A stretch of DNA of 10,229 nt from Candidatus Caldarchaeales archaeon (lineage in GTDB: Archaea > Thermoproteota > Nitrososphaeria_A > Caldarchaeales > Wolframiiraptoraceae), in contig JBCNVN010000033.1 in NCBI GenBank assembly GCA_039630055.1, forward strand, positions 1 through 10,229, read 5' to 3'. This document shows, piece by piece, positions 181 to 10,182 of this stretch. Each line of letters starts with the position of its first letter. The stretch's first letter is position 1. Below the pieces are notes generated by a model. That model worked only from the letters and a program-made list of their open reading frames with translations. It made no database searches and had not been told where the DNA came from. Position numbers and translations under genes: made by a program.

Positions 181-873
181 ATGAGTTTACCAGATATTGA
201 TAAGAGATCGATTGACAGAGTAATGGATGACGTTATACATGTTTCTAAGTCTCTTTTTGAAATGGGGTTGGTTAAGAGTACCTTTGGAGTAGTCAGCGAA
301 ATTATTCCAGATACAAATTATGTCGTCATAACTCCCAGTGGTTTTAGAAAAGAGAAGGTAACAAAAGAGAACCTAATAATAGTTGATCTTGATGGGAAGG
401 TTGTGTTAGGAGATCTTAGACCTTCAACTGAGACGCCGATGCACGTCTACATTCATAAACATGTCAAAGAGGCAAAATGCGTAATTCATTCCCACTCACC
501 GATGGCAACAGTCTTCGCAATTCTCAAGAGAGACATACCATGTATAACATCTGAGCAAGCCTTCATGTTTGGAGGAAGAATACCTGTAGTGAAGAAGTAT
601 TCTCTTCCTGGAACAAGTAACATAGAAGAATTGGAGAGCATAGCGGAGTCATTGAGAAATAGTAAAGCAGCATTGCTTCCGAGGCACGGTGTTATCGTTC
701 ATGGAGAGGGTGCAGAGGAGGCGTTAGACAATGCTATAGTCGTCGAAGATATTGCCCAGATGGCGATCTTTGCTCTACTACTTGGACAGCCTATAGAATT
801 TACAGATAGAGAGATAGCATACCTACAAGAATACAGGAGAACAAGATACGGACAGAAGATTCAAAAGAGATAA
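181..873 (+). CDS. Class II aldolase/adducin family protein (L-fuculose-1-phosphate aldolase-like)
   Basis: 230 aa with ITPSG, RPSTETPMH (Glu as in FucA-type aldolases rather than the Asp of AraD epimerases), Zn-binding IHSHS and LPRHGVIVHG. Confidence 0.9.
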   Translation: MSLPDIDKRSIDRVMDDVIHVSKSLFEMGLVKSTFGVVSEIIPDTNYVVITPSGFRKEKVTKENLIIVDLDGKVVLGDLRPSTETPMHVYIHKHVKEAKCVIHSHSPMATVFAILKRDIPCITSEQAFMFGGRIPVVKKYSLPGTSNIEELESIAESLRNSKAALLPRHGVIVHGEGAEEALDNAIVVEDIAQMAIFALLLGQPIEFTDREIAYLQEYRRTRYGQKIQKR

Positions 874-989
874 AAAATTATGTCACTATATCTAGCAGGG
901 GATGGTAATTTTACATCCATTTTTATTAAGCTATTTCGATGTCCGACTCGTATACTGTTTTAAAAAATAAAAAATGATTGAACGTATTG

Positions 990-2531
990 TTACTCGTATA
1001 GTTTGGATGGATCAGAATAGCATTCTTCAAGGACTTCATGAAGTTTTAGATACAATTTATAGAGTTTATCATAGATGATTGTATTCTCTAATGTTGGTTT
1101 CACTGATTGATCTACTTTCACCCAGTCATGTATCGTTTCATACTTGAGATGACCCGTTCCAACCCCTGCTAGCAGAGCATCTCCGAGAGGAGCGCCAGGA
1201 GCCTCCTCAACATAATATAGTTCTTTCCCGGTTACATCTGCCATAATCTTTCTCCAGACTGGAGATTTCGCTCCACCATTTACCAAGATGATCCGCTTTA
1301 TTGGTATTCTTGCTTCTACTGCGACATCAATACTATGGCGGAGGGCATAGGCAATAGATTCAAGAAATGCTCTGTAGATATGAGCCTTAGTATGCGATAT
1401 TGTCAATCCAAAAAGACAGCTCCTCATGTCTTTGCTCCAGAATGGCGCTCTCTCGCCAACAATCATGTGGGGTGTAAATATTAATCCATCAGATCCAGGC
1501 CTTATCTTCTCGGCCATCCTATCGAGAAGCATATATGTAGAAATATTAGAATTCTCTGCAACTAACTTTTCATGTTGGGATAACGTATCTCTAAACCATC
1601 TTACTATAGCTCCTGCTGTTGCAACCCCAGAGTGAGAATATACCTTTGCTAGGTCATAAGCTACATGAGGCAATGTTACAATCTTTCTAGATAGTCTTAG
1701 CTCGTCCTGTATTACACCATTACACATTGATGTCCCTATCATAGATGTTAAGTCTCCATCATCTAGTGCGGTTACACTCAAAGCCGAGACTGGTGCATCT
1801 ATTCCTCCAGCGACTACAGGTGTACCCTTCTTGAGACCGGTAAGCTTTTCCCCTTCTTCTGTTATCTCTCCAATTACATCTTTAGAGCAATTTATCTTCT
1901 CGGGGAAGAAGGTTCTAGGTATTCCGAGCTCATCCATCAGCTCCTCACTCCAATCTCTTTTGTATATGTCATATATTCCTCCAATGTTTCCAGCGCTCGA
2001 GTGGTCTATACAATTTACTCCTGTAAGCCTGTAGATTACATAGCCGTATATCGTCATTAGCTTATGTATCTTCTCCCAATTCTTAGGTTCATGTCTTTTA
2101 ATCCATAATATCTTTGGAAAACCATAATATGGATCTATTATATTGCCGGTCTTCTTGAATATCTCATCCTCACCTATCTCTCTCTTTATCCATTCGGTCT
2201 CTTCTATGGCCCTTCTATCCATCCAGATAATTGCAGGTCTAATAGGTTTATACTCTCTGTCTACAGGCACACCTGCACCTGAGAACAATCCACTGATCGA
2301 GAGACCGCCAATATCTGACGGATCTATCTTTGATATTCTTAAAGCTTCTCTAATGCTTTCACTGTAACCATTAAGCCAGACATCGGGCCACTGCTCTGCC
2401 CATCCAGGATTAGGAATAATAATGTCCGTTTCGATGAATGATGAAGCTATAATCTTTCCAGAAGAGTCTACTATGCAACTTTTAGTACCGAATGTTCCTA
2501 TATCGGTTCCGAGAAAAAGAGGGTAATCCAT
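990..2531 (-). CDS. FGGY-family carbohydrate kinase (xylulokinase-like)
   Basis: 513 aa with N-terminal LGTDIGTFGTK, PGWAEQ, IIWMDRRA, VVAGGID, IGTS, GERAPFW, RAFLES and NGGAKSPVW motifs. Confidence 0.93.
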   Translation of the reverse strand: MDYPLFLGTDIGTFGTKSCIVDSSGKIIASSFIETDIIIPNPGWAEQWPDVWLNGYSESIREALRISKIDPSDIGGLSISGLFSGAGVPVDREYKPIRPAIIWMDRRAIEETEWIKREIGEDEIFKKTGNIIDPYYGFPKILWIKRHEPKNWEKIHKLMTIYGYVIYRLTGVNCIDHSSAGNIGGIYDIYKRDWSEELMDELGIPRTFFPEKINCSKDVIGEITEEGEKLTGLKKGTPVVAGGIDAPVSALSVTALDDGDLTSMIGTSMCNGVIQDELRLSRKIVTLPHVAYDLAKVYSHSGVATAGAIVRWFRDTLSQHEKLVAENSNISTYMLLDRMAEKIRPGSDGLIFTPHMIVGERAPFWSKDMRSCLFGLTISHTKAHIYRAFLESIAYALRHSIDVAVEARIPIKRIILVNGGAKSPVWRKIMADVTGKELYYVEEAPGAPLGDALLAGVGTGHLKYETIHDWVKVDQSVKPTLENTIIYDKLYKLYLKLHEVLEECYSDPSKLYE

Positions 2532-2845
2532 AATAACATCAGCGTTTAATGGGATATAGCAGTATATATCTTTAAGCTGTAGGAAACGATGCTCAACTTA
2601 GTTTACGTTTCTCCAGTAGTCACGTTAATTCATCTATTAAAAATTAAGATAACATTGATAATTGGGAAACTATTGATTATTCTCTCTAAATTAGAATTTT
2701 TGTTTAGAGATTCTTTCTATCGATCTTTAATTTTGACCGATCGAATGATCACTGTATTCCCGATATATTTCACTAAATATTTAGATTGCTAAAAAATTAT
2801 CATGATCATGGTTGAAAGATCTTCTTGAGTATAGATGATCCTTTT

Positions 2846-3020
2846 AGTCTTCTAGGTTAACTACTCCATCTGGAATTCCATATTCTACTTGATCGTTTCT
2901 CTAATATATTGTAATCTCTAGGAGCTCTTTCTATATCTATCAAAACATCTAATGTTTTATAAGGTAAATATTTTTTGATTCTCTTCTAACACTTTCGAAA
3001 ATTCTTCTAGATTCTTCACT
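2846..3020 (-). pseudogene. Possible highly decayed aldehyde dehydrogenase fragment
   Basis: Minus-strand pieces in different frames read KNLEEFSKVLEEN, KTLDVLIDIERA and EYGIPDGVVNL (GIPDGVVNL at 2853-2879). They occur in ALDH order and the last resembles DAGIPHGVVNI of the intact ALDH. Matches are short and require large deletions. Confidence 0.25.
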
Positions 3021-3069
3021 TGAACGCTTGACCCATGTATTCAGTTCTATTGTAAATCATTTCTGATAA

Positions 3070-3413
3070 TGGGAGTATTCTGAAGAAATGGATGAGAAGG
3101 CAAAACAGATAAGAGAGATGATGATAGAGAAAGATTTGGGATATTTTGGATTATTGTTTATAAGAAAGCTTTGGAAGTGGTAAAGGAGATGAATACTCCT
3201 ACTAAGATTCTGGCCTACTCTACTCGTTTGGAATCGGGTAAAAGATATCTATATTTGGAGTGATTGGCTGGCTTACCAATCGTGATTATCATGAATAGAG
3301 ATGCTATAGAATGGATTTTGACAATTTACATAAGTGATGAAAATGGTAAGATTAAGATCCTTAACGATCTTTCCCCTCACATTGTCGATAAATTGATGAA
3401 GTTAAGATGGATT
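3070..3413 (+). pseudogene. Transaldolase-family C-terminal fragment (frameshift plus internal stop)
   Basis: Reconstruction reads ...EKDLGYFG / IIVYKKALEVVKEMNTPTKILAYSTRL...YLE*LAGLPIVIIMN...PHIVDKLMKL. There is a frameshift near 3149 and a TGA at 3261-3263; ORF 3264..3551 continues the same frame. It resembles the transaldolase C-terminal pattern G-I-A-V-x-K-K-A...K-L-L-x-A-S-x-R...E-L-A-G. Confidence 0.5.
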
Positions 3414-3763
3414 GGAAAAGAGTCATCTACCAATCGTCATGGTAATCACCAATCTCCAAATGCTATAATCGATACCTTTTTGAACACTTTCCTCGCAGCC
3501 TTCTTTTACTGCTCATGTAGTCATAGCTACTTGGAACACATTAAAACATGATATCTCATTAGTTGAAAACCGAAGCTTGTGAGATAGCTAAATGTTTGAA
3601 TTCTAGTCTTAATGACAGGTATCTTTACAATCTTCAATTTGGATTAGAACTAATCTATAATTAAGTATAGTTTTAACTATTATAGAATCCAATATCCTAT
3701 TTCACAGATTATTATTTGATGTATTATTTTAATCATTCAATAATGATTATCAAATGCATCTTA

Positions 3764-5215
3764 TTATGTTATGTCATAGTATACTTTGATGTGTTTAACT
3801 TCTAGATAATGCTTTAACCCTTCTCGACCCAAGTCACAGCCTATACCACTTTCCTTCCAACCAGGGTACGGAGCCTCAATAGTAGAAACATCAACATTGT
3901 TTATTCCTATGTTTCCTGCATCTAACATTCTCGATAGCTTCCAAGCCTTGTTTAGGTTATTGGTGTACACGTAGGCTGCTAATCCATAACGAGTGGAGTT
4001 GGCCATCTCGATCACTTCGTTTATGGTGTTGAAGGGCATTACTGGTTTAGCTGGACCGAAGGTCTCTTCCTTCATTATCTCCATATCATGATTCACATTT
4101 ACGATTATTGTCGGTTCATACCAGTATCCCTTCTTGAACTTCTCACCATCTGGTCGTTTACCTCCAATTAGGATCTTTGCACCCTTCTTGACCGCATCCT
4201 CAACATGTTCTATGACCTTGGATAGTGCCTCCTTATTACACATTGGCCCTAAATCAACATCGGGTTCCTTCAGTGGATCACCGATCTTTAATTTTTTGGT
4301 CTCCTCTACGAACAACTCTACAAATTTATCGTAAATCTTTTTCTCTACAAATATTCTATTAACCGCGTTACATATTTGACCCATGTTTCTGAAAGATCTC
4401 CTAACCGCTCCCTTTACCGCTTTCTCTAGATCTGCATCTTCAAAGACTATCATAGGTGTCTGCCCGCCAAGCTCCAAGGTCACTCTCTTCAAGTTTGATG
4501 CACATAACTCCATCACATGTTTTCCTATATCGGTTGAGCCGGTGAAACTAACCTTTCTAACTAGAGGATGAGATATGAGCGCTTCACCCACTGTCCTTCC
4601 CGGTCCAGTGATAATGTTTACTACGCCATGAGGTATACCTGCATCATGAAGACACTCGATAAATTTTATCGGTGATATAGGTGTGTATGATGGGGGTTTG
4701 GCGATTAGGGTGCATCCAGCTGCGAGGGCTGCTCCAACCTTCCATGATAAGAGCTGGACAGGATAGTTCCATGGTGTGATTGCAGCGACGACGCCTACTG
4801 GCTGCCATATCGTAATGCTCTCATATTCTTTTCTGGGTAAAGGTATTATTTCTCCATAGACTCTAAATATCTCTTCAGCAAAATATCTAAGAACATTAGC
4901 AGCATTTTTTAGTTCTTCTATAGCTTGCTTAAGCGGCTTACCTTGCTCCATAGATAGATATCTACTTATTTCACTTGCTCTTTTCTCAACTATCTCAGCA
5001 GATTTATACAATAAATCTTTTCTTTCTCCAAGAGGCTTTTGTGACCATTCTCTGAAGGCTTTATGGGCCGCTTTAACCGCTTTATCTACGTCTCCTAAAG
5101 TAGCAGATGGTACTTGAGCTATCGTATCCTCTGTTGCAGGATTTATTACATTCTCATATTTTCCGTCTGAAGATCCAACCCATTCACTATCAATCAGCAT
5201 AAAGAATTTCTCCAC
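3764..5215 (-). CDS. NAD(P)-dependent aldehyde dehydrogenase (succinate-semialdehyde/lactaldehyde dehydrogenase-like)
   Basis: 483 aa with ITPWNYP, FTGSTDIG, LELGG, catalytic Cys in GQICNA, and EETFGP. GTG start with a strong Shine-Dalgarno. Confidence 0.95.
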   Translation of the reverse strand: MEKFFMLIDSEWVGSSDGKYENVINPATEDTIAQVPSATLGDVDKAVKAAHKAFREWSQKPLGERKDLLYKSAEIVEKRASEISRYLSMEQGKPLKQAIEELKNAANVLRYFAEEIFRVYGEIIPLPRKEYESITIWQPVGVVAAITPWNYPVQLLSWKVGAALAAGCTLIAKPPSYTPISPIKFIECLHDAGIPHGVVNIITGPGRTVGEALISHPLVRKVSFTGSTDIGKHVMELCASNLKRVTLELGGQTPMIVFEDADLEKAVKGAVRRSFRNMGQICNAVNRIFVEKKIYDKFVELFVEETKKLKIGDPLKEPDVDLGPMCNKEALSKVIEHVEDAVKKGAKILIGGKRPDGEKFKKGYWYEPTIIVNVNHDMEIMKEETFGPAKPVMPFNTINEVIEMANSTRYGLAAYVYTNNLNKAWKLSRMLDAGNIGINNVDVSTIEAPYPGWKESGIGCDLGREGLKHYLEVKHIKVYYDIT

Positions 5216-6392: not shown

Positions 6393-6414
6393 GGTTCTGT
6401 TAAGTTTTCGGGGT
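6393..6414 (+). repeat. Left terminal inverted repeat GGTTCTGTTAAGTTTTCGGGGT
   Basis: 21/22 match to the reverse complement of 10153-10174. The start resembles IS257/IS6-family ends (GGTTCTGTT). Confidence 0.92.
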
Positions 6415-6435
6415 ATAAGTCCTTAGAGGATGCGA

Positions 6436-6455
6436 TGTTAGAATTCGGGGTATAA
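6436..6455 (+). repeat. Left inner (subterminal) repeat TGTTAGAATTCGGGGTATAA
   Basis: Repeats the inner part of the TIR (TTCGGGGTATAA at 6407-6418 and 6444-6455) and starts 43 nt from the element end, as does its right-end counterpart. Confidence 0.8.
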
Positions 6456-6460
6456 CACTT

Positions 6461-6472
6461 AAAGTTTAAATA
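6461..6472 (+). promoter_or_regulatory. Putative BRE-TATA promoter of the winged-helix gene
   Basis: AAAG followed by TTTAAATA (6465-6472). Standard archaeal spacing predicts a TSS near 6495-6498. Confidence 0.6.
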
Positions 6473-6495
6473 GAGTTTCGTCTTCTTTTCTTCTA

Positions 6496-6511
6496 GAGCG
6501 ATATGCCACGT
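6496..6511 (+). repeat. 16-bp direct repeat, copy 1 (GAGCGATATGCCACGT), spanning the predicted TSS and the ATG
   Basis: Exact match to 6947-6962. Confidence 0.92.
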
Positions 6512-6934
6512 AAGTTTAAAATTGAGTCTCTTGGAGAAAGAGAAGAGGATGTTGTGAAAATAGAAGTTTACGCAGATTCTATGGAAGAAGCAGTAGAGAA
6601 AGCTAAGAAAATTTTCTCCAGTCTTCAGCAGACATCCATTGCAAATATGTCGAAGAAAAGTCAACTTGCATCAAAGATTAAAGAAGTTCTCTACGAAAAA
6701 TTCAAAAATAATGAATCGTTCACCTTGCATGAAATCATGGAGAGAGTTCAAGGATTTTCTGTCTCTCCAAAAGATAATGAAAAAGAGTATAAGCGGTTTT
6801 ACGACCGGTTTTGGACTGTACTGCAGGAACTAAAGAGGGAGGGCATAGTATTTCAGAGCGGCACAATCATCCAAAGAGAAGACGGGGCGAACAAGCCGTA
6901 TAGAGTCTGGAAGCCTGTTAAAGTAGAGGGTTAG
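6503..6934 (+). CDS. Hypothetical two-domain protein with a small N-terminal beta-beta-alpha domain and a C-terminal winged helix-turn-helix
   Basis: 143 aa of normal composition with a TATA box upstream. The C-terminus FTLHEIMERV...RFWTVLQELKREGIV...PYRVWK looks like a wHTH. The N-terminus KIEVYADSMEEAVEKAKKIF recalls HicB-like or Jag_N-like small domains. Fold inferred by eye. Confidence 0.7.
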   Translation: MPRKFKIESLGEREEDVVKIEVYADSMEEAVEKAKKIFSSLQQTSIANMSKKSQLASKIKEVLYEKFKNNESFTLHEIMERVQGFSVSPKDNEKEYKRFYDRFWTVLQELKREGIVFQSGTIIQREDGANKPYRVWKPVKVEG

Positions 6935-6984
6935 TGGGGCCTAGCCGAGCGATATGCCACGTGAGACAGAATCGCTAGGCCCCA
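6935..6984 (+). ncRNA. Hairpin with a perfect 11-bp stem and a 28-nt loop carrying the 16-nt repeat
   Basis: TGGGGCCTAGC (6935-6945) pairs with GCTAGGCCCCA (6974-6984). It starts at the first base after the TAG stop. Expression as an RNA is inferred. Confidence 0.6.
6947..6962 (+). repeat. 16-bp direct repeat, copy 2, inside the hairpin loop
   Basis: Exact match to 6496-6511. Confidence 0.92.
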
Positions 6985-6987
6985 GAT

Positions 6988-7063
6988 GGGCGGGTGAGCT
7001 AACGGGAATGCGCCACCACATGGGCGTGGTGGTATTGGGGTTCAAGTCCCCACCCGCCCACCA
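6988..7063 (+). tRNA. tRNA-like element with encoded CCA and undetermined anticodon
   Basis: 76 nt. Acceptor stem GGGCGGG/CCCGCCC, T8, T-arm TGGGG-TTCAAGT-CCCCA, discriminator A, then CCA. D-loop GG is present but the D-stem is weak. The anticodon arm is a 7-bp stem CCACCAC/GTGGTGG with a 6-nt loop ATGGGC. Confidence 0.8.
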
Positions 7064-7075
7064 TAATTAATTGTG

Positions 7076-8245
7076 TTATGGCTGCTTCTTTATCTTTGCG
7101 TTTCTTTTTCGTTTTTCAGCAAGTTGGATGAGTTCCAGCCATTTGTTTTCTCCAGCGTACTTCAAGACTCCTGCCGTTTCCACCGGCGTTCTTCCATTCA
7201 GAGATATGTGAGGTTTTACGAAGTTATAATATATTCTATAGCCATCCATCAATCTCTCGGCTGCCTCCATCTTCTTCATTCCACGCATTACCTTGGTTCT
7301 GTCTTTGAATGTTCCGTGAAGCCTCTCTACTAGATTGTTGTTCGGTCTTTCTTCGAGACCTGCCAACCTGATATGTTTAACCCTCGGCCCCTTGAGTCTG
7401 TAGAACTCTTTCCTGAACGCATCTTCATAAGCTCGGAGACCGTCTGTTACAACTTCTGTTGGTAAGTTCTTAGAAGATTCTTTAGCTTTCCTGAATACTT
7501 CTCTAGCATCCGATACTTCTCTCCCTCTGCTCAGCTTTGTGGCCAATAAGTACCTCGTATCGGCGTCCATCAAGTTCCAGAGCCAGAGGTATTCTCCCCC
7601 AACCTTAACTGTGGTCTCATCAACATGCCATCTCCCAGAGGTTTCGGGTTTAAGCTGTTCTACATATCCCTTCATCAAGTCGATATACTTTCTAATCCAG
7701 TAGTAGACCGTTACATAGCTAACCTTTAATCCATGAAACTGCTTTACGTGGTCTGCTATCTTCCTAAAAGAGACCCCCTTGAAATACAGGTCTAAGGCCA
7801 GAGCGATTATCTCCGGTCTATACTTCATCTTTCTAAAAGCATCTTCCACTACTGAGAACTTTCTTCCACAGTTCTTGCACCTGTACCTTTGAACCTTGCC
7901 GTGCTTATTCTTCCTAAAGCCTATCTTCACGACCTTGTCTGAACTACAAAACCCGCAGACTGGGGATGGACATTCTAAGATGAAGCTACCCTCTTCCAGT
8001 ATTTTACTCCTTAGAGTGAGGGAGAACTCGACAGCATGGATATGCTTGCACTTAACCTTTCTATAGACGTGGTCTGGACAGCTACATACCCATCCTTCCT
8101 CGGTCTTTACGACATCGTACCAGCCATTCCCGTTCTGTGACCTGACTTTATAATAGGTGGAGCTAACCCTCCTGACTTGGTTGCCCCTAGCCAGTATTGC
8201 CAGACCTCTTAATTCACGGGAATCCATTCTCTGCAACCAATACAC
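7076..8245 (-). CDS. IS6-family DDE transposase with N-terminal SWIM zinc finger and zinc ribbon
   Basis: SWIM motif WVCSCPD...KCKHIHAV, zinc ribbon CGFC...QRYRCKNCGRKF, HTH SFRKIAD...VSYVTVYYWI, and catalytic WHVDET, VVTDG, NNLVERLH. Start is GTG 8245 or ATG 8227. Confidence 0.92.
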   Translation of the reverse strand: MYWLQRMDSRELRGLAILARGNQVRRVSSTYYKVRSQNGNGWYDVVKTEEGWVCSCPDHVYRKVKCKHIHAVEFSLTLRSKILEEGSFILECPSPVCGFCSSDKVVKIGFRKNKHGKVQRYRCKNCGRKFSVVEDAFRKMKYRPEIIALALDLYFKGVSFRKIADHVKQFHGLKVSYVTVYYWIRKYIDLMKGYVEQLKPETSGRWHVDETTVKVGGEYLWLWNLMDADTRYLLATKLSRGREVSDAREVFRKAKESSKNLPTEVVTDGLRAYEDAFRKEFYRLKGPRVKHIRLAGLEERPNNNLVERLHGTFKDRTKVMRGMKKMEAAERLMDGYRIYYNFVKPHISLNGRTPVETAGVLKYAGENKWLELIQLAEKRKRNAKIKKQP

Positions 8246-8337
8246 CTAATGTATTAGATATTTTGGATGTATTTAACTATTACATTGAATGTTAAGAAAA
8301 CCTTAAATATAGTCAATGCATTAAGTATTTTGAGAAT
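8246..8337. promoter_or_regulatory. Divergent promoter region for transposase and RHH-MTase genes
   Basis: Plus strand GAAAACC-TTAAATAT (TATA 8303-8310) before ATG 8338. Minus strand TTAAATA (8270-8276) before GTG 8245. Repeated AATGT/ACATT-like boxes are present. Confidence 0.6.
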
Positions 8338-8532
8338 ATGTCTCCTAAACCTAAGAAGTCTGATGCGGTGAAGAGGAACATAGTTTTAAAGATGGAGACT
8401 TATGAGCGTCTACAAAGATATCTTCTCGAATTGATACAGAAGCGTGGAGACCCTAGAATAACATTTGACGAAGCCATAAGCGCTTTATTAGACGAGCGCG
8501 AAGGGAGGGTTAAGGATGAGTCGGGGGACTAG
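8338..8532 (+). CDS. Small ribbon-helix-helix DNA-binding protein (archaeal VapB/CopG-like)
   Basis: 64 aa with the pattern KRNIVLKMETYERL...ITFDEAISALLD, typical of archaeal RHH proteins. It has its own TATA box and overlaps the MTase start by 17 nt. Confidence 0.75.
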   Translation: MSPKPKKSDAVKRNIVLKMETYERLQRYLLELIQKRGDPRITFDEAISALLDEREGRVKDESGD

Positions 8533-9457
8533 GACTAGAAGCTTTGGAAGCGGTAAGAGAGAAGGCCACGACTCCTCGCCTTTCTACTCCCGTAAGCTTT
8601 ACAGAGACTTCGCTCTCCCGAAGCCTAGACCTGGAGACCTTGCGGAGAACGAGGTTCCCGAAAAGTTCTTGGACAAGGTGCTCTTGGGGGATGCGAAGAG
8701 CATTCTGAGAGAGCTTCCGGACAGATGCGTCCACCTAATGGTTACTTCGCCTCCATACAATGTTGGCAAGGAGTACGATGAAGATTTAGCGCTGGGAGAG
8801 TACCTCGACTTCGTAGAAGAAGTGATGAAGGAGGTTTACCGAGTCCTGGTCTTCGGAGGCAGGGTGTGCTTCAACGTGGCCAACCTCGGCAGGAAGCCGT
8901 ACATACCGCTCCACGCATACCTGATAGAGAGGTTCGAGCAGATAGGGTTCTTGATAAGAGGAGAGATAATATGGTACAAGGGCGATGCTGTGGCCGGCTC
9001 TTCTACTGCGTGGGGTTCTTGGCTGTCCGCAGTCAATCCAACGCTGAGAGATGTCCACGAATATATCTTGGTCTTTTCAAAAGGCGGGTTCTCTAGAGAA
9101 AGGAGCGCTGGGAAGGAGGATACTATAGCGAGAGACGAATTCATAGAGTTTACGAAGAGCGTGTGGAAATTCCCTCCAGAATCTGCTAGCAGGGTAGGTC
9201 ATCCCGCACCGTTTCCCGTAGAGCTTCCATATAGATGTATACAGTTGTATACGTTTAAAGGAGACGTTATTTTAGATCCGTTCGTGGGCGTGGGAACTAC
9301 TTGTATCGCTGCAATAATAAGCGGGAGGCACTTCATTGGAATAGATGCTGATCCAAAGTACGTAGAGAGAGCGAGGAAAAGGATAGAGAACCTTCTATTT
9401 CAGCAAACCCTCTCGGGCGAGACAGGTTTTGCAAACCTCGACAGATATGGGATATAA
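8516..9457 (+). CDS. Site-specific DNA methyltransferase, beta class, probably N4-cytosine
   Basis: Motif IV VTSPPYN precedes HPAPFP and motif I LDPFVGVGTT, the beta order. SPPY is typical of m4C MTases. Confidence 0.92.
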   Translation: MSRGTRTRSFGSGKREGHDSSPFYSRKLYRDFALPKPRPGDLAENEVPEKFLDKVLLGDAKSILRELPDRCVHLMVTSPPYNVGKEYDEDLALGEYLDFVEEVMKEVYRVLVFGGRVCFNVANLGRKPYIPLHAYLIERFEQIGFLIRGEIIWYKGDAVAGSSTAWGSWLSAVNPTLRDVHEYILVFSKGGFSRERSAGKEDTIARDEFIEFTKSVWKFPPESASRVGHPAPFPVELPYRCIQLYTFKGDVILDPFVGVGTTCIAAIISGRHFIGIDADPKYVERARKRIENLLFQQTLSGETGFANLDRYGI

Positions 9458-9463
9458 AGTGAA

Positions 9464-10081
9464 TTATGGATGCTCTGTCTTTAAGCTGTCCGCAAGCTTT
9501 GCCACCATCTCGTAGAATGCGTCTAGGTATCTTTCTCTAGTAATCTCACCAGAGACTTTCGGGAAGGCGATATAGTTTCCTTTTTCTACCGCTTTCTGTA
9601 CAAGTTTTTCTACCGCTCCCCTCTTTATTCCAAACCCTCTCGGATTCGTTTTATTGCTAGGTATCCACCAGAATTTATTAAAGTTTAACTCCTTTTTCAC
9701 CGACTCTATATCATCCAATTCGAAGACGTATATGCCTTCCTCGATTACGTAGACGATCGGGCTTTTGAACTTAAACCTCTTCACTCTCTCCTTGGATGGA
9801 AAACCATTCCACGCAACCTTTACTACCTCCACGTCTTTAGCTGTCTTGAAGCTATATGCTTTCTTCTCCTCACCTATACATAAGTAGAAGTCCACCTTCC
9901 TCCCTAATTGTTCTCCGGGCTCCTCTACTACTCCAAGCTTGTTTAAGGTTGCTATGAACAACTCTTGTTTCCTCACTCCAACATCAGGGGTCTTGATGAC
10001 CTCTCCAAGAACTTTAAATCCCCTCGCCAAAAACTCTACAACGTCTTGACGATCCTTGAGTAAACATATTAACGAGTCCAT
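9464..10081 (-). CDS. Putative Type II restriction endonuclease, ThaI-like PD-(D/E)xK family
   Basis: Convergent with the MTase (6-nt gap). Contains DVGVRKQE, KVD...YSFKT, VKVAW, GIYVF and IPSNKTNPRGFGI, which recall ThaI-family motifs (EVG..RE, VD...SIKT, VKLIW, TNPRG) as remembered, not searched. Confidence 0.72.
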   Translation of the reverse strand: MDSLICLLKDRQDVVEFLARGFKVLGEVIKTPDVGVRKQELFIATLNKLGVVEEPGEQLGRKVDFYLCIGEEKKAYSFKTAKDVEVVKVAWNGFPSKERVKRFKFKSPIVYVIEEGIYVFELDDIESVKKELNFNKFWWIPSNKTNPRGFGIKRGAVEKLVQKAVEKGNYIAFPKVSGEITRERYLDAFYEMVAKLADSLKTEHP

Positions 10082-10104
10082 GCATTATACAGGCGCATCC
10101 AAAA

Positions 10105-10111
10105 ATATAAA
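10105..10111 (-). promoter_or_regulatory. Putative TATA box for the endonuclease gene
   Basis: TTTATAT on the minus strand 24-30 nt upstream of ATG 10081, directly next to the right inner repeat. Confidence 0.5.
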
Positions 10112-10131
10112 TAATACCCCGGATTTTAACA
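10112..10131 (-). repeat. Right inner (subterminal) repeat TGTTAAAATCCGGGGTATTA
   Basis: 17/20 identical to the left inner repeat 6436-6455, in inverted orientation, with the same 43-nt offset from the end. Confidence 0.8.
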
Positions 10132-10152
10132 CATCTCACTTGAACCTCAGAA

Positions 10153-10174
10153 ACCCCGAAAATTTAACAGAACC
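10153..10174 (-). repeat. Right terminal inverted repeat GGTTCTGTTAAATTTTCGGGGT
   Basis: 21/22 match to 6393-6414. Confidence 0.92.
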
Positions 10175-10182
10175 ATTATTAA
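10175..10182 (+). repeat. Right target-site duplication ATTATTAA
   Basis: Identical to 6385-6392. Confidence 0.9.

Follow-up and report, generated by a model that had tools for sequence, protein, structure and literature searches.

The window analysed here, 10,229 bases long, is the whole of contig JBCNVN010000033.1 in a metagenome-assembled genome (MAG) of an archaeon from hot-spring metagenomes (1.54 Mb in 80 contigs, 39.4% G+C, 91.9% complete). It carries a transposon of the IS6 family (6393-10174) and, inside that transposon, a genuine tRNA-derived, tRNA-shaped gene (6988-7063) whose anticodon arm is exactly one nucleotide too long. Among the poorly understood irregular tRNAs that mobile elements carry, it is a new variant, archaeal and transposon-borne. 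Related transposons carry irregular tRNAs of their own, each behind a same-strand open reading frame (ORF), and comparison of their sequences makes it evident that in three of these elements the extra base in the anticodon loop is under selection. As for function, the favoured reading is that the gene is cargo of a recently mobile element and acts for it as a tRNA mimic, decoy or regulator; this reading leans on analogy with known irregular tRNAs and comes a little short of an even chance.

Structure and origin of the tRNA-like gene

When ARAGORN was run on the window, as the original prediction had proposed, a single gene was called, at 6988-7063 on the plus strand, and labelled tRNA-??? with a two-base "anticodon" (gg), corresponding to a 6-nt loop. 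Divided at its structural boundaries, the sequence reads GGGCGGG-TG-AGCT-AACGGGAA-TGCG-C-CACCA-CATGGGCG-TGGTG-GTAT-TGGGG-TTCAAGT-CCCCA-CCCGCCC-A-CCA. The acceptor stem has seven Watson-Crick pairs of seven (GGGCGGG/CCCGCCC) and is followed by A73 and CCA, both encoded; the T arm has five pairs and the loop TTCAAGT. The gene follows the cloverleaf rules of a 7-bp acceptor stem, a 5-bp T stem with the T-loop consensus, and tertiary bases, all of which are kept (U8, A14, A15/U48, G18, G19, A21, G53-C61, T54, T55, C56 and A58). Its layout is 7/5 for the acceptor and T stems, with U8 and G9 after the acceptor stem and a 4-nt variable loop, and across the three long stems all 19 of 19 pairs are Watson-Crick. 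The D stem is weak: only G11-C24 and C12-G23 pair, flanked by A10/G25 and U13/U22, giving two mismatches in four pairs. The cloverleaf energy of 6988-7063 is -36.7 kcal/mol, against a minimum free energy of -40.4 kcal/mol at 37 C. The original prediction had described the acceptor stem, T arm, A73 and CCA as intact and the D stem as minimal, and had noted that G3-C70 leaves the gene without the Ala determinant of transfer-messenger RNA (tmRNA); all of this is seen in the sequence.

The anticodon arm departs from the rule of a 5-bp stem, a 7-nt loop and U33. It can be drawn as CCACCAC-ATGGGC-GTGGTGG, with seven pairs and a 6-nt loop, or with a standard 5-bp stem and the 8-nt loop C-AUGGGC-G, in which case C26-G44 and the two outermost loop bases are also able to pair. 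From 26 to 44 there are 20 nt as against the canonical 19. The arm had earlier been called broken; the 7-bp stem and 6-nt loop were described correctly, but the word overstated the anomaly, which is a single extra nucleotide and not three. At the position of U33 the loop has A, not U, before UGG(G), and taking GGG as the anticodon places C at 37.

A chance origin of the ARAGORN call is excluded, because dinucleotide shuffles gave one match in 200 for the whole window and none in 2000 for 6930-7075. The gene is also the most G+C-rich 76-nt stretch in the window (65.8% versus 39.6%), in line with the 41 other host tRNA genes, whose mean is 62.7%. Three sequencing runs were found, all DNA contigs from one hot-spring study; Logan contigs of run X1, possibly the sample behind the window assembly, span the gene with no difference reported.

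Several other identities were considered for the gene and rejected. An intron-containing, split or permuted tRNA does not fit a gene of 76 nt with CCA, and the ARAGORN call was the same with introns allowed. A tmRNA or Ala-type domain, with G3-U70 and a tag frame, conflicts with G3-C70, and the ARAGORN tmRNA search of the window was empty. tRNA-Pyl is described as having a 6-bp anticodon stem, a 3-nt variable loop, a single base separating acceptor and D stems, and the anticodon CUA, and tRNA-Sec as having a 13-bp acceptor branch and a long variable arm (PMC7609411); the gene in the window has U8 and G9 after the acceptor stem, a standard T loop, the 7/5 layout, a 4-nt variable loop and neither a CUA nor a UCA anticodon.

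In its likely identity the gene resembles tRNA-Pro, with G1-C72, G2-C71, G3-C70, A73 and a UGGGC loop core as in host tRNA-Pro. The identity of archaeal tRNA-Pro has been assigned, for A. pernix, to A73, G1-C72 and G35/G36 in the anticodon (PMC9976931); here the RNA has A73, G1-C72 and, within its loop, a run of GG(G), the numbering of the Gs being ambiguous in an 8-nt loop. The tRNA-Pro genes of the host are ordinary, with the loops CUUGGGC (UGG) and CUGGGGC (GGG), and the window loop CAUGGGC+G is nearest to CUUGGGC, from which it differs by A for U33 and an extra 3' G. Introns are called by ARAGORN in 27 of the 42 host tRNA genes. The gene was not copied recently from a host tRNA. The original prediction had raised the possibility of a normal host tRNA with a mere indel in the loop; the gene does not align to one, the 12 top-scoring of the 41 host tRNAs having only 49-55 of 73 positions in common with it.

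The transposon and its recent mobility

The element that encloses the gene has the attributes of an IS6 transposon, namely an IS6 DDE transposase, short inverted ends and an 8-bp duplication (Table 1). The transposase matches NCBIfam transpos_IS6 at 1.1e-45 (155.8 bits, cut-off 125) and Pfam DDE_Tnp_IS240 at 3.3e-23, and GGTTCTG... ends like those of the window also flank the transposase in related loci. All four element genes are intact, and the transposase, methylase and endonuclease each match their families end to end. Between the end of the tRNA-like gene and the stop codon of the transposase gene, which is convergent with it, lie 12 nt. An ORF family scan and the analysis of the ends bear out the earlier statements that the window contains no integrase and that the gene lies inside the inverted ends.

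The site without the element was found in run X2. A 2380-nt contig joins position 6392 to the right flank with the element absent, skipping 3793 bases and having ATAT between where the window has ATA, which is the predicted empty site within one base. The insertion is polymorphic in the hot-spring population and recently mobile, because the empty site is still present in that population. In X2 the depth of the empty-site allele (9.6) was greater than that of the element's own contigs (about 2-6).

Irregular tRNAs as recurring cargo in related transposons

Relatives of the transposase numbered 1844 at E<=1e-10, the closest of them (P0002) being 73% identical; the nearest annotated relatives are of the ISCpe7 type, at 29% identity. 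A scan of one genome per species gave 159 transposase relatives, of which 78 loci were kept (79 with the window), mostly from Bathyarchaeia, Nitrososphaerota and methanogens. GGTTCTG-like ends were paired around each transposase gene by a script in which a match at 17/22 or more was taken as an end pair. A clear pair was present in 48 of the 79 loci (window included), with a perfect 8-bp duplication in 34 of the 48. The ends lie 2.3-7.2 kb apart, so the elements are generally cargo-bearing; they enclose several genes, with restriction-modification (R-M) enzymes, antitoxin-domain genes and tRNAs among them. Methyltransferase relatives were found in 9 of the 78 related loci.

Eight tRNA genes were called by ARAGORN inside seven of the 48 bounded elements, six of which have perfect duplications. 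Every one of the eight is irregular (Table 1), and the three found outside elements are ordinary (two Ala, one Arg). In all seven elements an ORF lies on the same strand 10-130 nt upstream of the cargo tRNA, the gap being 10-47 nt in four relatives. Relative to the transposase gene, the cargo tRNA is upstream and on the same strand in the six relatives and downstream and convergent in the window. In the two Methanoregulaceae elements, L047 and L048, the tRNA is found at a shared position, some 400 nt upstream of the transposase gene, and follows in each case an ORF of 232-248 aa, the two ORFs being 65% identical. In the Archaeoglobaceae element, L091, a 432-aa winged-helix/AAA-associated ORF stands ahead of both tRNAs and matches the Pfam winged-helix family HTH_45 at 9.5e-7. 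BLASTP of the upstream ORFs of L017 and L044 against each other gave nothing. The transposon clade has a recurring cargo module, an ORF and then an irregular tRNA, in which the ORF is of the winged-helix kind where its kind can be discerned, by Pfam in one case only.

The module keeps the company of addiction and defence genes, a type II R-M pair in the window and Panacea-type antitoxin genes in four relatives. Panacea/SocA antitoxin domains occur, with small unknown neighbours, in four of the seven tRNA-bearing elements, and a hidden Markov model built from those four genes found no other clear case among the 79 loci and one weak match, in L020. In a quick transposase tree (77 rows, with L044 left out as its gene is broken), the tRNA-bearing elements were scattered. 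The L044 transposase gene (L044:3965-5148) is split by a -1 frame change, and the target duplication of that element matches at 2/8; its tRNA is intact, at 98.8 bits.

Selection on the loop anomaly in related elements

Evidence for selection on the anomaly comes from the Thr-like tRNAs of L017, L034 and L044, in which the loop UUUGGUAA is unchanged. Between L034 and L044 the tRNA is 89.5% identical, the transposase DNA 73.5% and the flanks about 50%; the L017 tRNA is only 56-62% identical to the other two, and its loop is nonetheless identical. A covariance model of the three RNAs gave 87-101 bits for themselves and 29.1 for the window RNA. In a model-fitted alignment of all four, 97.4% of the cells pair and 13 of 20 stem pairs have changed on both sides, with none of 500 shuffles as high, figures that are to be read in the light of the alignment having been fitted to the structure and of the window RNA being possibly not homologous to the other three. 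The Thr-like RNA is single-copy in all three genomes, and a normal tRNA-Thr(GGU) was seen in two of them (G076 and G077). When the model was run on 151 genomes of the order of G077, the best other matches reached at most 77.6 bits and, among 29 loci examined, were ordinary tRNA-Thr genes bar one tRNA-???(gtat); because the best other matches are ordinary tRNA-Thr genes, the Thr-like type is both of Thr ancestry and rare. The exception, an 89-nt tRNA-??? with the four-base anticodon gtat in a Bathyarchaeia genome (L373, G088:C50:4677-4765), may simply be an intron-containing tRNA-Thr.

In the three related elements the extra-base anomaly is evidently under selection, to judge from these comparisons. 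For the window RNA, selection is suggested by its intact stems and tertiary bases, by its tRNA-like G+C content and by analogy with these relatives. The original prediction had argued for selection on shape; this finds indirect support in the three Thr-like relatives, which keep the 8-nt loop while their stems covary, but for the window RNA itself no homologue was found. In both types the loop agrees with the acceptor identity, the Thr-like RNAs combining G1 C2 C3 and U73 with GGU-A-A and the Pro-like RNA combining G1 G2 G3 and A73 with UGGGC, pairings that are consistent with the identity sets of PMC9976931.

Homologues of the window RNA were sought widely. Searches of 61 relatives gave one 28-nt match only, and searches of 401 genomes of the phylum gave one 45-nt match only, which is a tRNA-Val gene; an exact 43-mer of the RNA occurred in none of the species genomes, and plasmid and phage collections gave no match. 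Two pattern scans proved too loose. The pattern TTTGGTAA...T-arm found 24 loci in viral contigs, those called by ARAGORN being ordinary phage tRNA-Thr(GGU) or tRNA-Pro(UGG). The pattern ATGGGC...T-arm found 88 viral and at least 119 metagenome loci, of which 97 lay in an ARAGORN gene, nearly all in Leu/Ser variable arms; two of the 97 were tRNA-???(tt) calls. The transposase alignment, used against viral contigs, gave two loci only.

The upstream gene orf143 and the leader

The ORF directly upstream of the tRNA-like gene, orf143, is an orphan, with no sequence relative in two very large protein searches. Its AlphaFold2 model has a mean pLDDT of 79, and Foldseek gave weak rows that were consistently winged-helix, among them PadR, Stf76 (pSSVx) and F-112 (SSV1), with a best E of 0.038; on the strength of the modelled fold, orf143 is probably a winged-helix DNA binder.

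The start region of orf143 recurs in the leader of the tRNA-like gene. A second copy of the 19-nt repeat found at the orf143 start codon lies at 6947-6965, just past the orf143 stop codon, and is enclosed in a G+C-rich hairpin; the fold of 6933-6987 has -24.0 kcal/mol and a z of -3.47, and one of 200 shuffles was as good. The hairpin at the first copy is weak (z -1.3 to -1.9), and the arms of the two hairpins differ in sequence. Translated, 6954-6986 of the leader reads MPRETESLGPR, compared with MPRKFKIESLGER at the start of orf143, and the codon differences within ESLG are synonymous. The tRNA-like gene begins right after this copy of the orf143 start. By sequence likeness, the leader would have arisen as a copy of the promoter and 5' region of orf143, since diverged, and would now feed the tRNA-like gene. 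An open frame of 38 codons (6954-7070) starts MPR...ESLG.R like orf143 and crosses the entire tRNA-like gene; probably it is left over from the duplicated orf143 start and has stayed open because the sequence is G+C-rich.

Possible functions

The roles that the original prediction had put forward, a processing signal, a decoy and an odd Pro decoder, all figure among the readings considered here. In the favoured reading, the tRNA-like gene would be transcribed from the diverged copy of the orf143 promoter and leader, or jointly with orf143, and RNase P would free the RNA from its hairpin leader. Prolyl-tRNA synthetase (ProRS) may recognise the product, A73, G1-C72 and GG fitting the archaeal identity set (PMC9976931). 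The mimic would still be bound by tRNA-binding proteins, and its odd anticodon loop would allow poor decoding or none. ProRS, modification enzymes and a tRNA-directed toxin or nuclease are candidate partners, and the RNA would be a decoy or regulator serving the mobile element rather than a normal adaptor. This reading is preferred because of a precedent, the irregular/allo-tRNAs of Mukai et al. (2017; PMC5389517), some of which were charged in vitro yet went unused in translation.

Several observations weigh against the mimic reading. In the host's own genome, the window RNA gave only matches of 25 nt or less, at the level of the T arm, and no second copy. The Rfam search proposed by the original prediction went the other way from ARAGORN: there was no match to the gene at gathering score and no row for the tRNA family RF00005 (cut-off 29 bits) even at E<=10. 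The best row was mascRNA-menRNA (RF01684), at 24.8 bits against a gathering score of 42.5, covering the T arm and part of the acceptor stem only. The Rfam tRNA model accepts the Thr-like relatives at 48.7-56.9 bits (46.7-56.9 for L017, L034, L044, L047 and L048 together), and the window gene is more degenerate than these Thr-like relatives, as its half-mismatched D stem and the A in place of U before UGG also indicate. At 29 bits, the Thr-like RNAs are perhaps not homologous to the window RNA, and the argument from them leans on analogy. The families of upstream ORFs have no significant similarity to each other or to orf143 (hhalign E 0.16 and 0.42), the winged-helix label of orf143 comes from weak Foldseek rows, and the promoter was assigned from the 19-nt repeat and a loose TATA-like similarity upstream. 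The Panacea association represents two independent lineages at most.

A working frameshift-suppressor decoder is unlikely. Such an RNA would be charged by ProRS, and its 8-nt loop would read a four-base codon (UGGG for CCCA) or promote a +1 shift at Pro codons, for a programmed event or as a harmful effector checked by orf143. Classical frameshift suppressors derived from Pro, Thr and Gly tRNAs, SufB2 being of Pro origin, and the window RNA shares with +1 suppressors the one extra nucleotide in the anticodon loop, in a register set by the stem. An 8-nt anticodon loop in an otherwise normal tRNA characterises SufB2 and other +1 frameshifting tRNAs (bioRxiv 10.1101/2020.12.31.424971), and a natural 8-nt-loop tRNA decodes in yeast mitochondria, the selected tRNA-Thr(UAG), which is Thr-like as are the RNAs of L017, L034 and L044 (PMC4267643, PMC7609411). 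The transposon-borne 8-nt-loop RNAs come in two types, Pro-like and Thr-like, whose acceptor identity agrees with the loop; the Thr-like loop, read as UU-UGGU-AA, retains U33 and A37 around a four-base anticodon, and the tertiary bases and CCA of the window RNA are intact. However, no gene of the element requires a frameshift, the transposase, methylase and endonuclease being full-length family matches (no systematic search for +1 sites was made). The lone split transposase among the relatives, that of L044, has a -1 break with no ACC or CCA codon there. The window loop, moreover, has A and not U before UGGG, and C at position 37 with a GGG anticodon. The SufB2-type suppressors are laboratory mutants of chromosomal genes, whereas the window RNA lies in a mobile element and combines A for U33 with a Watson-Crick pair at 26-44 and a D stem that is weak, and no frameshift target is evident. 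The yeast tRNA is organellar and reassigns CUN codons (PMC4267643, PMC7609411), and nothing here points to reassignment.

It is also improbable that the gene is a decaying hitch-hiker without function, its extra loop base and D-stem mismatches being plain damage. Decay would account for a singleton with no homologue in the searches made, for the failure of the Rfam tRNA model, for a D stem mismatched at two of four pairs, and for a non-canonical loop with A at U33. It does not sit well with 19 of 19 Watson-Crick pairs in the other three stems and every tertiary base intact, with tRNA-level G+C in a 40% G+C element, or with an insertion recent enough to have an empty site. Further, the extra-base anomaly is held under evident selection in three related elements, and all eight cargo tRNAs of the clade are irregular in recurring ways.

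A bolder proposal, for which the chances are slim, is that the small DNA-binding protein and irregular tRNA of archaeal IS6-type transposons form an RNA-toxin addiction or abortive-defence pair with the tRNA as effector. A stable, chargeable RNA would corrupt decoding, by shifting the frame at Pro or Thr codons or, in the UAU and GUC types, by mis-insertion, or would jam a synthetase, and the adjacent regulator would restrain it. If this were true, it would also describe the irregular tRNAs found in bacteria near toxin-antitoxin genes.

Slimmer still is the case for a cis-acting element, which would recruit RNase P or tRNase Z so that the orf143 message receives its 3' end there, in the manner of mascRNA at MALAT1, or would block convergent read-through into the transposase gene. 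The position of all seven cargo tRNAs, 10-130 nt behind a same-strand ORF, is consistent with this, as are the gaps of 10-47 nt in four relatives, too short for a separate promoter, and the 12 nt that separate the end of the gene from the convergent transposase stop codon. mascRNA (RF01684) is likewise a tRNA-shaped element directly behind a same-strand gene, and it gave the best Rfam row; that family is eukaryotic, however, and the match was partial and well under the cut-off. Any anticodon loop would do for a processing handle, yet no part of the Thr-like type is more conserved than its loop, which also fits the acceptor identity, and the placement relative to the transposase varies, being upstream on the same strand in six relatives and downstream and convergent in the window. 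Archaeal integrative elements commonly target tRNA genes, and the truncated copy of the orf143 start in the leader suggests that recombination once made a joint where the gene has its 5' end, but a remnant of an attachment site, which the original prediction had found not obvious, is very nearly refuted by the presence of both acceptor-stem halves in a full-length cloverleaf, the lack of an integrase family among the 10 window ORFs and of a second partial copy in the window or genome, and the position of the gene inside IS6 ends with an 8-bp target duplication.

Relation to known systems

Bacterial irregular and allo-tRNAs carrying the anticodons UAU, GUC, GGU and GCU/U73 have been reported in the neighbourhood of toxin-antitoxin genes and of a transposon ORF; in vitro charging was seen for some that E. 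coli translation did not use (Mukai et al., 2017; PMC5389517). The likeness to the window gene lies in non-standard tRNA genes beside addiction or mobile-element genes and in elongated anticodon stems (PMC5389517, PMC7609411); the window RNA has seven possible pairs in its anticodon arm, and within the transposon a type II R-M pair accompanies it. The same anticodons, UAU, GUC, GGU and GCU with U73, recur in the archaeal cargo tRNAs of this clade. The bacterial RNAs differ in being mostly acidobacterial, often 8/4 or 9/3 and often polycistronic, whereas the window RNA, from an archaeon, is 7/5 and Pro-like, has an 8-nt loop and lies within the defined ends of a transposon. Assignment to the allo-tRNA class proper, with its 12-bp acceptor branch in an 8/4 or 9/3 layout, was rejected for this 7/5 RNA. 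In the accessible part of PMC5389517, 8-nt anticodon loops are not mentioned and the term "anticodon loop" does not occur.

The bacterial irregular tRNAs found in metagenomes in 2017, beside toxin-antitoxin and transposon genes, are still unexplained. In the present case they have a defined archaeal vehicle, whose ends and target duplication are known and whose empty site persists in the population. The ORF upstream adds a fixed partner, and the anticodon loop, longer by one base yet still in agreement with the acceptor identity, adds a sharp molecular signature. Function becomes a testable question: whether the RNA is made, whether ProRS or threonyl-tRNA synthetase (ThrRS) charges it, and whether frames shift or a nuclease is soaked up.

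The vehicle itself resembles the zinc-finger clade of the IS6/IS26 family (Varani et al., 2021; PMC7986276) in passing the transpos_IS6 cut-off, in its GGTTCTG ends and in the 8-bp duplication. That review, in its accessible part, names one passenger-bearing member, ISDsp3; in archaea, by contrast, this branch commonly carries several kb of cargo, as the 48 of 79 loci with paired ends indicate.

Features of the window

Table 1. Annotated features of the transposon and its flanks (window coordinates), and cargo genes of the related elements (locus coordinates)
Feature	Position	Strand	Remarks
Left 8-bp target-site duplication ATTATTAA	6385..6392	.	8/8 identical to 10175-10182
Left terminal inverted repeat GGTTCTGTTAAGTTTTCGGGGT	6393..6414	+	21/22 complementary to 10153-10174
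19-nt repeat, first copy	6496..6514	+	Spans orf143 start codon; direct repeat D12, 95% identical to 6947-6965; inside a predicted hairpin
orf143, orphan protein, probable winged-helix DNA binder	6503..6934	+	Directly upstream of tRNA-like gene; AlphaFold2 and Foldseek
G+C-rich leader hairpin enclosing second 19-nt copy (6947-6965)	6937..6984	+	Fold of 6933-6987
tRNA-like gene	6988..7063	+	Acceptor Pro-like (G1-G3:C70-C72, A73); CCA encoded; anticodon loop of 8 nt, or 7-bp stem/6-nt loop; weak D stem
IS6-family DDE transposase, 389 aa, N-terminal zinc-binding extension	7076..8245	-	NCBIfam transpos_IS6, Pfam DDE_Tnp_IS240
Type II DNA methyltransferase (N6/N4)	8516..9457	+	Pfam N6_N4_Mtase 4e-45; PADLOC MTase_II 2.3e-138
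Type II restriction endonuclease, 205 aa	9464..10081	-	PADLOC REase_II 8.4e-21, residues 2-198 on profile 5-220 of 224
Right terminal inverted repeat	10153..10174	-	Pairs with left end at 21/22
Right target-site duplication ATTATTAA	10175..10182	.	8/8 versus left copy
Cargo tRNA, window (tRNA-like gene)			Pro-like, 8-nt loop
Cargo tRNAs, L017, L034, L044 (three Bathyarchaeia genomes)			Thr-like: G1 C2 C3, U73, CCA; loop UUUGGUAA = tRNA-Thr(GGU) loop UUGGUAA plus one U
Cargo tRNAs, L047 and L048 (Methanoregulaceae)	L047:3577-3665, L048:1899-1987		UAU anticodon, long variable arm, 6-bp anticodon stem, G73
Cargo tRNA, L091 (Archaeoglobaceae), first gene	L091:3584-3763		GCU anticodon, class I body, U73; position range spans both L091 genes
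Cargo tRNA, L091 (Archaeoglobaceae), second, adjacent gene	L091:3584-3763		GUC anticodon, long variable arm, 8-bp acceptor stem
Panacea/SocA genes	L034:4067-4729, L044:5775-6440, L047:5533-6120, L048:3524-4528

A subterminal motif, TTCGGGGTAT / ACCCCGRA, is repeated inside both ends of the element (6405-6457 and 10113-10168), and these repeats may be extra transposase-binding sites. The flanking host genes (181-5215) belong to ordinary sugar catabolism and include a class II aldolase, an FGGY kinase and an aldehyde dehydrogenase. In all three runs the depth rises in spikes of 100-450 at 8655-8799 and 9090-9234, with loose ends to either side; the spikes mark conserved methyltransferase motifs that other abundant organisms of the community share.

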